A program made the translations under genes and the position numbers. A DNA stretch of 24,398 nucleotides from an uncultured Methanosarcinales archaeon (lineage in GTDB: Archaea > Nanobdellota > Nanobdellia > Woesearchaeales > 0-14-0-80-44-23), in NCBI GenBank assembly GCA_964418195.1, contig CAYQKJ010000001.1, positions 1 to 24,398 of the forward strand, read 5' to 3'. Shown here piece by piece: positions 1,221-7,138 of the stretch (positions are counted from its first letter, which is position 1; each line of letters starts with the position of its first letter). Below the pieces are notes generated by a model. It made no database searches, had not been told where the DNA came from, and saw only the letters and a list, made by a program, of their open reading frames with translations.

Positions 1221-1325
1221 ATGGACATTGTCTGGGAAAAGATAATGAGGATTATACTTGTGCTGATTTTTATTGCAATATTCACTTATCTTATGATAAA
1301 GAATGCAACACTGATTTTTCAATAA
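1221..1325 (+). CDS. 34-aa hydrophobic microprotein resembling a pilin N-terminal helix (MDIVWEKIMRIILVLIFIAIFTYLMIKNATLIFQ)
   Basis: Translated by hand (below the ORF-track cutoff). AGGTGA RBS at 1211-1216, one TM segment, fills the gap between MEMO1 and the next gene. Confidence 0.65.
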   Translation: MDIVWEKIMRIILVLIFIAIFTYLMIKNATLIFQ

Positions 1326-1357
1326 AATTTATGCCAATCAAAAAAAGGTGATTTGAT

Positions 1358-2290
1358 TTGGAAACAAAGGAATTGGTTGGAATAATACTTTTGTTAATCA
1401 TTGCATTTGTTTTTGCACTAATCCTTTCTAAAATGATTGGCTATTCTTATTCGGCAGGTGATAGGGAAGCCTGCAGGATGAGCGTGCTTGCCAAGTGGGC
1501 TGGGAAAAAAGTAAGCTTTGGAACTGTTTCAAATATCTTTGATTTGAACTGCAAAACACAGCAAGTTGAGATAACAACAGACTCCATAGTGAAAAATGAC
1601 AAAAAGGTTGAGGATTTGAAAGACCTTAAGGAAGATCAGCTTCAAGAAAAAGTGGAAAGGGCAATAGCCAATGAGATGTATGACTGCTGGTATGAATTCA
1701 ACAGGGGACAGTTTGACTATACACGCGAAGGTTTTCAAGAGATTGAAAGAGATATAAGAGCGCATGTTTGCGTTGTGTGTTCAGACGTAAGTTTTGATGA
1801 AGGTATCAGAAAAAATTTGCCAGAAATAAATGGATTCACACAATGGCTTTCAGAAAACAAGCCAGAAGGAACTGATGTAACATATTACGATTATTTCACA
1901 AATAATATGGGAAACATAAAAGAAGATCTTCAAAATTTAAATATGAATGCTGCTGACTCTGTAAAGACAGAAGAATCATATCAGGTAATATTCATGGTTG
2001 ATAAAGGCACAACAGAAGGCGGTTTTTTACTTTTAGGCACAATCGCAGGCGGCATTGGGGGAATTATTGGGGGCGCGGTAATAGGATTTTTTGTAGGCGG
2101 AGGTGTTGGAGCTATTCCTGGAGCAATAATTGGAGCAAAATTAGGCGGTGTAATGGGAGTGGGACTTGGAGCTGCCACTGGCGGCGTCAGTGCTCTAATT
2201 GCAAAAGCAGTTCCTCCAGACACATATGTTCCTGTGCTTCTATTTGTTCCCACACAGGCAGTTCCGGATTATTGTAAAAAATATTATTAA
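1358..2290 (+). CDS. Membrane-anchored Cys-rich protein with a C-terminal glycine zipper (paralog A)
   Basis: N-terminal TM helix, six Cys (EAC, LNC, DCW, CVVC, DYC) and a ~60-aa Gly-rich hydrophobic tract. TTG start with AGGTGA upstream. Aligns by eye with 2297..3133. Confidence 0.85.
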   Translation: METKELVGIILLLIIAFVFALILSKMIGYSYSAGDREACRMSVLAKWAGKKVSFGTVSNIFDLNCKTQQVEITTDSIVKNDKKVEDLKDLKEDQLQEKVERAIANEMYDCWYEFNRGQFDYTREGFQEIERDIRAHVCVVCSDVSFDEGIRKNLPEINGFTQWLSENKPEGTDVTYYDYFTNNMGNIKEDLQNLNMNAADSVKTEESYQVIFMVDKGTTEGGFLLLGTIAGGIGGIIGGAVIGFFVGGGVGAIPGAIIGAKLGGVMGVGLGAATGGVSALIAKAVPPDTYVPVLLFVPTQAVPDYCKKYY

Positions 2291-2296
2291 AAAGGA

Positions 2297-3133
2297 ATGC
2301 TATTCATGAAAATGCTAAAAAAATGTTTTTCTGAAAAAAAAGGAATTGCAACTGAAACCACTGTATTTATGATGTTGGGGCTAGTGATTTTTATTGCTAT
2401 ATCATTAACTGTAATTCTGCCTCTTAAGGAAACTGCAGAAGCTAACAGTGAAAAAGAAGCATGCCAAAAAAGCGTGCTGATGCATTCTAAATTAAGAATT
2501 GAAACCAAGCCAATTTCAGAGAGCATAAAGTGCCCTACAAAATTCATAACAATAGAGGAAACTAATGCTACAAAAATAAAGCAGGAAATTGCCAACCAGA
2601 TGTTTGACTGCTGGGACAATTTTGGAGAGGGAAAGCTTGAGCTCTTTGATGCGCAGAGCGAAAAATTCTGCGTTGTGTGCTCTGTATTGAACTTTAAGGA
2701 AAAAAGAATATTAACGGGGTTCACTGATTTCTTGGCAACAGAAAAAATTCCTACGCGAGATATTACATATCTGGAATATTTTACTGGACAAGAGTCTGCA
2801 AATCCTCAGATAGCAGAACAACTGGAAATTGCAAAGCAGGAAATTGACACTGGTAAGGAATATGCTGTGGTTTTCACATATGCAAAAACAGCATATTGGT
2901 CAAATTTCGGAAAAGCTGGCTTAGGAGCAATTATTGGCATTGTTGGAGGAGTTGCACTTTCTTTTACAGGAATTGGTGCTCCTGTAGGGCTTGCGTTGAT
3001 TGGAGGAAGCATAGGAACAGCAATAGGAGGAAGCTTAAAAACAAGTCCACCAGAATGGAATGCTGCAATCGTTCTTATTCCTGAAGAAAACATTACTGAA
3101 CTTGAGTGCACAAGCATTCCAAAAACAAAATAA
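2297..3133 (+). CDS. Class III signal peptide (pilin-like) Cys-rich protein with a glycine zipper (paralog B)
   Basis: EKKG|IATETTVFMMLGLVIF leader, the same six-Cys pattern as paralog A, and a GxxxG-rich hydrophobic tract near the C-terminus. Confidence 0.87.
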   Translation: MLFMKMLKKCFSEKKGIATETTVFMMLGLVIFIAISLTVILPLKETAEANSEKEACQKSVLMHSKLRIETKPISESIKCPTKFITIEETNATKIKQEIANQMFDCWDNFGEGKLELFDAQSEKFCVVCSVLNFKEKRILTGFTDFLATEKIPTRDITYLEYFTGQESANPQIAEQLEIAKQEIDTGKEYAVVFTYAKTAYWSNFGKAGLGAIIGIVGGVALSFTGIGAPVGLALIGGSIGTAIGGSLKTSPPEWNAAIVLIPEENITELECTSIPKTK

Positions 3134-3213
3134 AATTAAAAAAGTGTGCAAAAAACCAAATAATTTAAATAGTAGAAGTGTATAATGATATATGAAATAG
3201 TATACTGATTAAG

Positions 3214-3378
3214 ATGAAATTTTTATCCCAAAAAAAAGCAGATTTGCTGGAATCAACAATAGGAAAATGGGTAATTGCGCTTGCCTTGCTGTTAATACTC
3301 ATACTCATAGTTGCCGCTACAAAGGATAAATTTGGTAATTTGTGGAATCACATAAAAAACATCTTAAGGTTTAGGTAG
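3214..3378 (+). CDS. 54-aa class III signal peptide mini-pilin (MKFLSQKKA|DLLESTIGKWVIALALLLILILIVAATKDKFGNLWNHIKNILRFR)
   Basis: Translated by hand. KKA cleavage-type motif, then a hydrophobic helix and an amphipathic tail. Confidence 0.8.
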   Translation: MKFLSQKKADLLESTIGKWVIALALLLILILIVAATKDKFGNLWNHIKNILRFR

Positions 3379-5175: not shown

Positions 5176-5296
5176 ATTTATGATAAAACGTAAATTTGAT
5201 TAAAAAACATTAAAAATTTTAAAAGTGTCAAAAAAATCAAAAACCTGTCATTAATAAAAATACATGTGACTTGTCAGTTTTAATAATTCACATAAA

Positions 5297-5743
5297 ATGA
5301 GGACAAAATCAAAAAAAGGAGAAGGTACTTCTGACTTGTATTTAATAATTTTTTATGTTATCTGCTTTGGAGCGCTTTTTCTGATGTCAATAAGGTATGT
5401 GGGCTCTGTTGCTTTTGGAGATGTTTTTGAGAGAACCTATATTGCCAGAGATTTTGCCTTGGTTATGGGTATGGCTTATGCAAGTCCGGGCAGGTTAGAA
5501 TACACTTATCCGATAAACCTTTTAGAGAAAAAATTTGAGATGACTGCCGGCAATGGTAGTGTTGAAGTAAGCGGCAAGTCATTAAGCAAAGTGCTGACAT
5601 CAAAATATGAATATGCCATTTCAGAAAACATAACTGATGAGAAAGTCATGACTAATAGGCAAATAAAAATAATAAAAGATGAGAATAAAATAGAAAAATA
5701 TGCGCTTGGAAGCACTGCTGATAGCGGAGGTACTGCAAAATAA
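5297..5743 (+). CDS. Class III signal peptide (minor pilin-like) protein
   Basis: MRTKSKKG|EGTSDLYLIIFYVICFGALFLM leader followed by a small soluble domain. Confidence 0.83.
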   Translation: MRTKSKKGEGTSDLYLIIFYVICFGALFLMSIRYVGSVAFGDVFERTYIARDFALVMGMAYASPGRLEYTYPINLLEKKFEMTAGNGSVEVSGKSLSKVLTSKYEYAISENITDEKVMTNRQIKIIKDENKIEKYALGSTADSGGTAK

Positions 5744-5759
5744 AAGAAAATCACGTAAA

Positions 5760-6299
5760 ATGAAAAATAAAACTATAAGAATATTAAAAAACAAAAGGGG
5801 GGATCAGATTAGTTTTGATGTGGGATTAGCAATACCTCTCTTAATTTTCTTGATAGTGCTCTTCCTTTCCTATGTTTTCTTTACACAGTCATTCATGTCA
5901 GTAAAAACATATACTAAGCCTGCTGAAGTGAGGGTTTATGCTGCAAGAATTCTGTATGATAAAGAATGTTTTTCTTTTTATGATGAGGAATTAGACAGGG
6001 TTTATCCTGACATCATGGAGGAAGCAAGATTAAATAATGATGTTTTTGAGAAATGCATGAATTTCACTGTAAGAGACCATATGGCTGCAAAGGTTGAAAT
6101 AACAAAAGAGGATTCAACCAAAGTTGAAGCATTCTATAATAAGGAGAATTATGATTTGTGGCAGGCATTTGTAGGGCTGAGCGGAGAGGGCTCTGCAACA
6201 GAATATGTGGAAGAAGGGCCGATTGTTTTAATGGATAAAAATTCTAATACTGAAAAAGCCTGGGTTAAGATAAGTATTTTGATGCCTAGCAGCGCCTGA
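5760..6299 (+). CDS. Class III signal peptide (minor pilin-like) protein
   Basis: In-frame ATG at 5760 removes the overlap with the upstream gene. Leader LKNKRG|DQISFDVGLAIPLLIFLIVLF. Confidence 0.83.
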   Translation: MKNKTIRILKNKRGDQISFDVGLAIPLLIFLIVLFLSYVFFTQSFMSVKTYTKPAEVRVYAARILYDKECFSFYDEELDRVYPDIMEEARLNNDVFEKCMNFTVRDHMAAKVEITKEDSTKVEAFYNKENYDLWQAFVGLSGEGSATEYVEEGPIVLMDKNSNTEKAWVKISILMPSSA

Positions 6300-6544
6300 A
6301 AAAACATAAAAATCCATAAAAGATTTATTAATCTAAAGTTAAAGTTCTTTATCTTGTTTTGAAAGCCAAAAAAACTAAAACTTATTAAATTCCAAACCAC
6401 AAACCCATATTACAATCATTGATTATAATATTATTACAAATAATTGATTCATTACAAAATTGTCACAAAAAAATAGAGCAAATCAGGTAAAAAAACAATA
6501 TTTAATAAAAAATAAGCTTTAATCAAGAAATTAATAAATAATTG

Positions 6545-7138
6545 ATGGAAAGTAAAATGAAAAATATTGAAAAAATATTTAAGGCAAAAAAAGCAGGCGG
6601 CTTGGGAGATATTCTGACAATAGTTTTCTCCATCTTGCTTTGGGCGTTCATAGTGTTGGTGTTTGCGCTTTTGATGTTCACAGTGAAAGGTTGTTCACGT
6701 ACAGAAGAGGATACAATCTTATCTGAAGAGGGAAGAACTTCTGAAATGAATCTATTTTTGATGAGCTATTTGAGGCAGCCGTTGGAAATAGATGGCAGAA
6801 AAACTGATGTGGTTGAACTAATAAATATGTGGATAGCATACCCGAAGGATTATGAAGACAAACTGAAGGAAGAAACCAGCAACCTATTAGAACTTTCAAA
6901 ACTGAATTGTCCTTCAATAAAGATTTCTTATCAAGACCAGTCCGGCGCAGTAAAGAACAACAGGCAGATTGAGATAAAGAAATCAGAGTGCAATTTAGAA
7001 GGGTTAGCATCCATTGCTGTTGTAAGGGGCAATCTTAATGCTTACATAAATGAATATGAAGCTGCTGTTGACGTTCCATTAATGAATGGAATGGAAGGGA
7101 ATGCTGTTGTGGCAATGAGCACAAGGTATCTGCAGTAA
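6545..7138 (+). CDS. Class III signal peptide (minor pilin-like) protein
   Basis: FKAKKA|GGLGDILTIVFSILLWAFIVLVFALLMF leader. Start could be 6542, 6545 or 6557. Confidence 0.82.
   Translation: MESKMKNIEKIFKAKKAGGLGDILTIVFSILLWAFIVLVFALLMFTVKGCSRTEEDTILSEEGRTSEMNLFLMSYLRQPLEIDGRKTDVVELINMWIAYPKDYEDKLKEETSNLLELSKLNCPSIKISYQDQSGAVKNNRQIEIKKSECNLEGLASIAVVRGNLNAYINEYEAAVDVPLMNGMEGNAVVAMSTRYLQ

Follow-up and report, generated by a model that had tools for sequence, protein, structure and literature searches.

Type IV pilins are defined by their shape, in which an alpha-1 helix some 50 residues long leads into a beta head (PMC8179133). In DPANN archaea the ATPase and platform genes of such filaments are adjacent to each other and the pilin genes are scattered away from both, and an ATPase gene together with two platform genes constitutes the archaeal 'system 1' layout (PMC13705601). 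DPANN genomes are also known to contain 'dark matter' pilins (PMC6393860), and murein hydrolases were noted earlier in Woesearchaeota and Pacearchaeota, where they were read as a sign of interaction with bacteria (PMC8204110, PMC9723730, PMC12352652). Pili and pilins are unmentioned in PMC12352652, as are the pilus terms that we searched for in PMC9723730 and PMC8204110. Here we analyse an array of ten genes (g01 to g10, Table 1) at positions 1221-7138 of a Woesearchaeales contig (CAYQKJ010000001.1, here C1), the whole of which, 24,398 nucleotides, is hereafter called the window. We consider it reasonably likely that this array is a cluster of pilin and minor-pilin subunits belonging to a lineage-specific type IV filament of Woesearchaeales and neighbouring orders of the class, and the filament is probably aimed at bacterial envelopes.

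The original prediction, which was made from the DNA letters alone, had described ten consecutive plus-strand open reading frames (ORFs) at this place, each starting with one hydrophobic helix, and we found both the coordinates and the helices as claimed. The protein sizes do span 34 to 310 amino acids, and the leaders assigned to seven of the proteins (g03, g04 and g06 to g10) are exact to the residue. The soluble heads had been called mostly unrelated, which holds in general and fails for g02 and g03, as these two are paralogous (E 4e-16) and share four invariant cysteines. For comparison, [KR][GA] occurs not more than 12 residues before the helix in 35 of 256 (13.7%) other N-terminal-helix proteins of the same genome. 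The presence of the leader in seven of ten array proteins thus has a P of ~7e-5 against N-terminal-helix proteins and of ~1e-9 against all crude genes. The K/R-G/A site was also kept in the orthologs of g04 (15/15), g07 (23/25), g08 (22/24), g09 (21/25) and g10 (15/16), that is in 84-100% of them, and it was noticed in 19 of 33 orthologs of g03 and in 13 of 18 of g02. Identity among orthologs is only ~20-30%, yet the glycine or alanine at position -1 is retained.

AlphaFold2 models of g03 and g09 were built with ortholog alignments. In the g09 model (predicted local distance difference test, pLDDT, 90.9) helices at residues 13-47 and 53-66, with a kink between them, are followed by a head of pure beta-sheet with six strands, and the helix begins at the predicted cleavage site G14|D15. 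In the g03 model (pLDDT 77.8; predicted template modelling score, pTM, 0.75) a helix runs over residues 17-66 from the predicted +1 residue and leads into a mixed alpha/beta head. Both predicted models therefore display the 'lollipop' of pilins, with an alpha-1 of ~50 residues and then a beta head. Between g09 and g10 the N-terminal leader-helix module alone is common and the heads differ (hhalign probability 84%); sharing just the N-terminal module is a pilin-like pattern. The Atlas model of g08 gave a template modelling (TM) score of 0.60 to DUF7266 and of 0.49-0.53 to a bacterial N_methyl (prepilin) cluster. By language-model features and predicted structure, the nearest named clusters are the uncharacterised archaeal Pfam families DUF7287, DUF7288 and DUF7266; a g09 relative reaches a TM score of 0.61-0.66 and g08 one of 0.60, with no match in sequence. 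Membership in DUF7287 or DUF7266 found no support in sequence, as none of 26 g09-family members matched DUF7287 and a search of the genome with the family gave only E 0.41, at another place. A word-indexed homolog search with the g09 profile returned 10 proteins only, none of them annotated.

Synteny across relatives had been proposed as a check on the array, and gene order was found to be retained in the 27 loci that we fetched from the order; the wider samples comprised 201 genomes of the order and 251 high-quality genomes of the phylum. In the Woesearchaeota contig L007 the order runs Memo, then proteins of 35, 255, 276, 56, 45, 273, 206, 134, 170, 171 and 52 amino acids, then TBP and MCM, and BLAST paired each of g01 to g11 with a counterpart in L007 and in two genomes of the same family. 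L007, L040 and L045 have the complete g01-g11 order, and another 23 loci have most of it. Across the 27 loci the order of g08, g09 and g10 is unchanged, with essentially one copy of each, g08 being present as a single copy in 26 of them. The g03 family is found in 124 of the 201 order genomes, chiefly as a tandem pair. The g09 profile matches 176 of the 251 genomes of the phylum sample, nearly always once per genome, and 33 of these genomes come from elsewhere in the class, outside the order. Run against 1.84 billion library proteins, the same profile matches 1,517 cluster representatives (50% identity).

Furthermore, clusters in related genomes contain one to five tandem genes for small pilins of 80-115 amino acids. 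Their N-terminus is very regular, with the consensus KKAQG-LSLN-TIIIAAIALIVLVVL, and their tail is Cys-rich. These small pilins look canonical, and their genes are embedded within the cluster. The source genome has a lone gene for an 83-amino-acid Cys-rich pilin on another contig (C13:7516-7767, minus strand; KKG|IELSVNVIIIAVIAL), and this is the sole close match in the genome to the in-cluster small pilins of its relatives. By eye, its neighbours are ribosomal-protein-like genes and a replication factor C-like gene. Within the array, g06 matches the small-pilin profile with E 5.5e-7 and g05 weakly, with E 0.009.

The original prediction had found no assembly machinery in the window and had placed it elsewhere in the genome, and both statements are supported, since all matches to the A24 peptidase, T2SSE and T2SSF families lie on other contigs and a genome-wide search finds an A24 peptidase (C156), an ATPase with two T2SSF genes (C64) and a second ATPase (C142). 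The A24 prepilin peptidase is the only one in the genome (55.1 bits) and is present in five of five relatives checked. On C64 a FlaI/PilB-type ATPase (117.8 bits) is followed by the two T2SSF genes. The second ATPase (C142:260-2560, L003) has 766 amino acids, of which ~230 form an N-terminal extension, and matches FlaI at 2e-36 and TadA at 7e-34. A membrane protein of 730 amino acids is encoded on C114 (977-3166, L069), and in closed relatives its eight-helix homologue of 730-755 amino acids adjoins the 766-amino-acid ATPase (L046, L047). This membrane protein occurs in 199 of the 201 order genomes at ~50-60% identity and has no Pfam match; its second cytoplasmic region aligns with a T2SSF-domain profile (hhalign E 4.4e-5, probability 69%). 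The closed genome G025 (774 kb) has a peptidase gene, a complete cluster that includes three small pilins and, as its sole candidate motor, the large ATPase and its partner. Coupling of the cluster to the canonical T2SSF platform was considered and rejected, as T2SSF-negative genomes keep the cluster. Since the cluster is found in genomes without recognisable T2SSF, the near-universal pair of 766-amino-acid ATPase and 730-amino-acid platform is more likely the motor, and this pair is probably missed by current type IV filament models. Linkage of an ATPase to the cluster was also rejected in the single-contig genomes checked, the nearest lying ~158 kb away in G085 and ~66 kb away in G025, and the platform gene is at least ~22 kb from the cluster in the same-contig cases checked. 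As the separation of pilin genes from machinery genes is the rule in DPANN archaea (PMC13705601), the absence of machinery at this locus is not itself unusual.

In 21 of the 27 loci a large protein of 287-1,338 amino acids is encoded directly after g10. These terminal proteins carry a K/R-G/A leader (e.g. RKG, KRG or KKG), a helix and a conserved N-terminal region of ~130 residues, and 14 of the 19 that we scanned pass the curated Pfam cut-off for a murein-hydrolase domain, namely Peptidase_M23 (5), SLT (4), Peptidase_M15/VanY (2), 3D (1), NlpC/P60 (1) and Amidase_2 (1). Four others matched weakly and fell short of the cut-off (one each to SLT, 3D, NlpC/P60 and glucosaminidase), and one gave no match. 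The type of hydrolase module is thus interchangeable between genomes. One pilin-like terminal protein (L056:1429-5199, G035) has an NlpC/P60 domain and a C-terminal GDSL lipase/acylhydrolase domain, which brings a wall-cutting and a lipid-cutting module together. The copy in the source genome (C56:3-1847, L107), whose 5' end is cut by the contig edge, has an M23 domain (E 1.6e-24) in which the HxxxD and HxH motifs are intact; among named proteins, the murein endopeptidases ShyA and MepM are its best relatives. The full-length ortholog starts with a KRG leader in G178 and with an RKG leader in G085, and the helix comes next in both. In the family of the window the hydrolase gene has moved out of the cluster; it stands there (L107, L109:1477-3399, L110:1474-3405) upstream of a gene whose product looks, by eye, like a tRNA-guanine transglycosylase. 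The terminal gene of the relatives and the unlinked copies of this family both combine a pilin-like N-terminus with an independent functional domain, which is what marks a modular pilin. Mur ligase and penicillin-binding protein (PBP) transpeptidase had no match in the source genome, which is ~90% complete; with no murein-synthesis genes found, it is unlikely that the hydrolase remodels a wall of the cell's own. That the hydrolase gene has a conserved place, closing a pilin cluster, is reported in none of PMC8204110, PMC9723730 and PMC12352652, and we found no report of a pilin-murein hydrolase architecture in the literature searched.

A hydrolase encoded beside pilin-like genes could also be the cargo of a type II secretion-like pseudopilus, which would release this and further enzymes instead of displaying them on a fibre. 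Sec or Tat signals are present in only about one third of archaeal murein hydrolases (PMC12352652), so that another export route is needed, and a gene content of one major and several minor pseudopilins resembles GspG-K. On the other hand, the hydrolase itself bears a pilin-like N-terminus, which speaks for a subunit rather than cargo, and there is no outer membrane to cross in these archaea. We therefore give very little credence to such a secretion system.

Taken together, the conserved leaders, the pilin-length helices of the AlphaFold2 models, the small pilins inside related clusters and the machinery genes support the proposal that this is the subunit locus of a filament assembled by machinery encoded elsewhere. 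The outcomes that the original prediction had named as fatal to it were not observed, as far as they could be checked: a peptidase and ATPases are present in the genome. Several observations weigh against a filament. The gap between the predicted cleavage site and the hydrophobic core is 2-10 partly polar residues (median 4-5 in g07-g10), whereas textbook archaeal prepilins have a shorter and less polar stretch here; the seven sites would probably not pass the strict FlaFind-type pattern, which asks for ~20 hydrophobic residues immediately behind the cleavage site. In the window g01, g02 and g05 are without leader. The curated pilin models (PF04021, PF07790, PF07963 and the NCBIfam pilin models) matched neither the ten proteins nor the small pilins, and neither sequence search nor Foldseek returned a solved pilin, g03 being without a fold match in the Protein Data Bank (PDB). 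The Gly-rich insertion of g03 is placed by AlphaFold2 between two strands of the head with pLDDT <50. At least 12 PF00482-negative genomes carry the g03 family, including the closed G025 and the near-complete G028, G045 and G150. The hydrolase gene is outside the window and unlinked in the window's family, lying ~100 kb from the cluster in G085. Finally, we found the locus in DNA runs only and in no RNA run.

Some of these points are what would be expected if the array proteins were uncleaved signal-anchor membrane proteins, in which K[KR][GA] merely follows the positive-inside rule in an AT-rich, Lys-rich proteome. The background frequency of [KR][GA] before other N-terminal helices given above, the lack of a match to any pilin hidden Markov model and the departure of the sites from the strict archaeal prepilin pattern all agree with it. 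Against it speak a glycine or alanine kept at -1 across orthologs as diverged as these, the enrichment over N-terminal-helix proteins, a predicted helix of pilin length that starts at the site, and the canonical-looking small pilins of the same cluster, and we hold this explanation to be very unlikely. The main rival accepts processing by the A24 peptidase and denies the filament: the products would form a membrane-anchored surface assembly, similar to the Sulfolobus bindosome, or a very short pseudopilus, holding the hydrolase and the heads at the surface. The bindosome contains sugar-binding proteins with class III signals. The conserved class III leaders fit such an assembly, the N-terminus of g07 has a weak match to the bindosome protein BasC (E 0.022), the second hydrophobic segment of g02 and g03 would hinder extraction from the membrane, and the cluster is present in genomes without a PF00482 platform. 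Against it, headless small pilins, which are typical shaft subunits, lie within the cluster in most relatives, nearly all genomes of the order have a FlaI/TadA-type ATPase and a T2SSF-like partner for it, and the four conserved pilin-like genes, with their fixed order, are reminiscent of a priming complex. We therefore regard a non-filament assembly as doubtful and retain the type IV filament as the preferred reading.

How such a filament might work can be outlined as follows; we infer its processing, polymerisation and enzyme activity alike. The single A24 peptidase would remove the leaders, and the 83-amino-acid pilin of C13, possibly with g06, would build the shaft. The single-copy g07-g10 proteins would form a priming or tip complex, like the four core minor pilins of bacteria, and this complex would present the hydrolase pilin (the M23 type on C56 in this genome) and perhaps g02 and g03 with their Gly-rich hydrophobic hairpin. 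The filament would then bind to a bacterial envelope and open it locally. A cluster that ends in a hydrolase suggests a surface filament with which bacteria are gripped and breached, and the idea of host attachment, which the original prediction had raised, receives indirect support from the murein-hydrolase pilin at the cluster end in relatives. Carried further, the locus may encode a cross-domain organelle of attack or attachment, with g07-g10 and an interchangeable hydrolase pilin at the filament tip and a glycine-zipper hairpin of g02 and g03 that enters the target membrane, by which Woesearchaeales and related Nanoarchaeia would dock on bacteria, open the wall and reach the contents. We offer this wider picture tentatively and rate it as possible rather than probable; if true, it would be the molecular basis of the long-suspected association between DPANN archaea and bacteria. 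We know of no host for most Woesearchaeota and Pacearchaeota, nor of their mode of attachment.

Table 1. Genes of the array and the adjoining gene g11 in the window (f1, the family of the window; leaders are written with the predicted cleavage site as a vertical stroke; aa, amino acids)
Gene	Position	Strand	Product and features
g01	1221..1325	+	34-aa single-helix microprotein, without leader in f1
g02	1358..2290	+	310 aa; helix at the N-terminus; alpha/beta head rich in Cys, with a Gly-rich hydrophobic insertion; leader-less here; paralog of g03
g03	2297..3133	+	278 aa; leader EKKG|IATE; alpha-1 of ~50 residues; Cys-rich head; Gly-zipper-like insertion at residues 208-248
g04	3214..3378	+	54-aa pilin-like microprotein; leader QKKA|DLLE
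g05	3383..3514	+	43-aa microprotein; N-terminus is the mature-pilin-like motif ELAINTII, without leader
g06	3534..4394	+	286 aa; leader NKKG|VDLA; N-terminus KKG|VDLAMNLVVIAV, with homology to the small Cys-rich pilins that related loci encode; C-terminal head
g07	4504..5175	+	223 aa; likely start 4528; leader NKKG|VAEA; minor-pilin-like, the first in a conserved set of four
g08	5297..5743	+	148 aa; leader SKKG|EGTS; minor-pilin-like
g09	5700..6299	+	179 aa from likely start 5760; leader NKRG|DQIS; most conserved gene of the cluster
g10	6542..7138	+	193-198 aa; likely start 6557; leader AKKA|GGLG; minor-pilin-like
g11	7171..7332	+	53-aa CxxC...CxxC Zn-ribbon-like protein; syntenic within f1 only

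The true starts of g07, g09 and g10 are likely the internal ATG codons listed in Table 1, and with the later start of g09 its apparent overlap with g08 vanishes. Orthologs of g01 (33-36 amino acids) stand at the equivalent position in L007, L040 and L045, and in distant loci an ORF of 40-47 amino acids, often with a K[KR][GA] leader, precedes g02. Orthologs of g02 outside family f1 have KKG, KKA or RRG leaders. The leaders of g02 and g01, usual in g02 orthologs elsewhere, thus appear to have been lost locally in the family of the window, where that of g02 is absent or, in G085, cut down to M-R-G. Immediately 5' of the TTG start of g02, at 1331-1360 of the window, there is a short ATG ORF (MPIKKR, stop). 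In distant loci the position of g05 is occupied by a gene for 200-400 amino acids. The three family-level relatives have a g11 protein of 63-67% identity, and none was found in the 23 other loci; it is probably outside the filament proper.

The g02 and g03 proteins have a conserved Gly-rich hydrophobic insertion of ~45-60 residues beside their four invariant cysteines. Similarity of this hairpin to the pore-forming toxins SmhB and MakA was below threshold (E 0.05-0.2) and was taken as compositional, and a likeness to VirB2, also sub-threshold, is probably compositional as well. Profiles made from the g03/g02, g09 and platform alignments had no significant match among PDB sequences. In Pfam and NCBIfam, no model scored above threshold against any of the ten proteins, the small pilins or the 730-amino-acid membrane protein. 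Five loci (L041, L043, L044, L049 and L065) have one or two extra conserved class III-like genes upstream of g02, whose products of 160-180 amino acids carry a KAQ or KGQ leader followed by MEI-GLAVIVIL; N-termini that look similar by eye were noticed on scattered contigs of the source genome, e.g. C195, C172 and C222. A second pilin-like cluster on C31 (622-7317, L068) encodes three class III-like proteins (249, 170 and 492 amino acids) and an amidohydrolase-domain protein, and it includes, after the three class III-like proteins, a 735-amino-acid paralog (30% identity) of the divergent platform.

The source genome measures 1.04 Mb in 223 contigs, the window being the entire contig C1, and close protein relatives carry the label Candidatus Woesearchaeota. 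Metagenomic DNA runs of freshwater sediment contain the locus. The array has a G+C content similar to the remainder of the contig and its chromosomal neighbours Memo, TBP, MCM and RPA are conserved, which lends no support to a foreign or mobile origin. The MCM of the window (8849-10885) has 678 amino acids and is intein-free; its counterpart in L007 (15430-18744) has 1,104 amino acids with intein and LAGLIDADG domains.

The scattered pilin genes of DPANN archaea, the 'dark matter' pilins and the murein hydrolases of these lineages are already known. As far as the searched literature shows, three things are new: a defined cluster of very wide distribution, built of unmodelled families, its independence from recognisable T2SSF, and a pilin-like, module-swapping hydrolase as the terminal gene. 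In the same literature the murein hydrolases of these lineages were tied to no surface machine, and a pilin-like hydrolase at a conserved cluster end turns them into a concrete, testable apparatus of about a dozen defined proteins. Several large families without a Pfam model are also named hereby, the g09 family alone accounting for ~1,500 clusters at 50% identity.

Among described systems, the Epd pilus of Methanococcus maripaludis ('system 1'; PMC13705601, PMC4858521) resembles the present one in its class III leaders, in several minor pilins per operon, in a small major pilin with little or no head that is encoded away from the main locus, and in an ATPase with two platforms, as found on C64. 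Unlike Epd, none of the ten proteins or small pilins is matched by the curated families, the cluster has no dedicated peptidase gene and occurs also in genomes without recognisable T2SSF, so that it does not co-occur regularly with two-platform machinery, and the g02/g03 family and the murein-hydrolase pilin are not known from Epd loci. For the priming or tip complexes of bacterial minor pilins (FimU-PilVWX with PilY1, GspH-K, ComGD-G), as in the cluster, four conserved pilin-like genes stand in a set order before that of a large effector, and major pilin and motor are encoded elsewhere; with no detectable homology in sequence or fold, and across domains of life, the analogy is one of organisation only. 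With the extracellular murein transglycosylases of Woesearchaeota and Pacearchaeota (PMC8204110, PMC9723730) and the archaeal peptidoglycan hydrolases (PMC12352652) the terminal proteins have in common the lineages, the enzyme classes and the idea of a bacterial wall as target. The modular pilins PilB and PilC of Streptococcus sanguinis (PMC8179133) offer a likeness in design, as they too carry a grafted functional module that is swapped among relatives and for which presentation at the tip has been proposed, whereas here a murein hydrolase has been grafted, with good support for at least five catalytic types (and weaker matches to two or three more), in archaea that are themselves free of murein.

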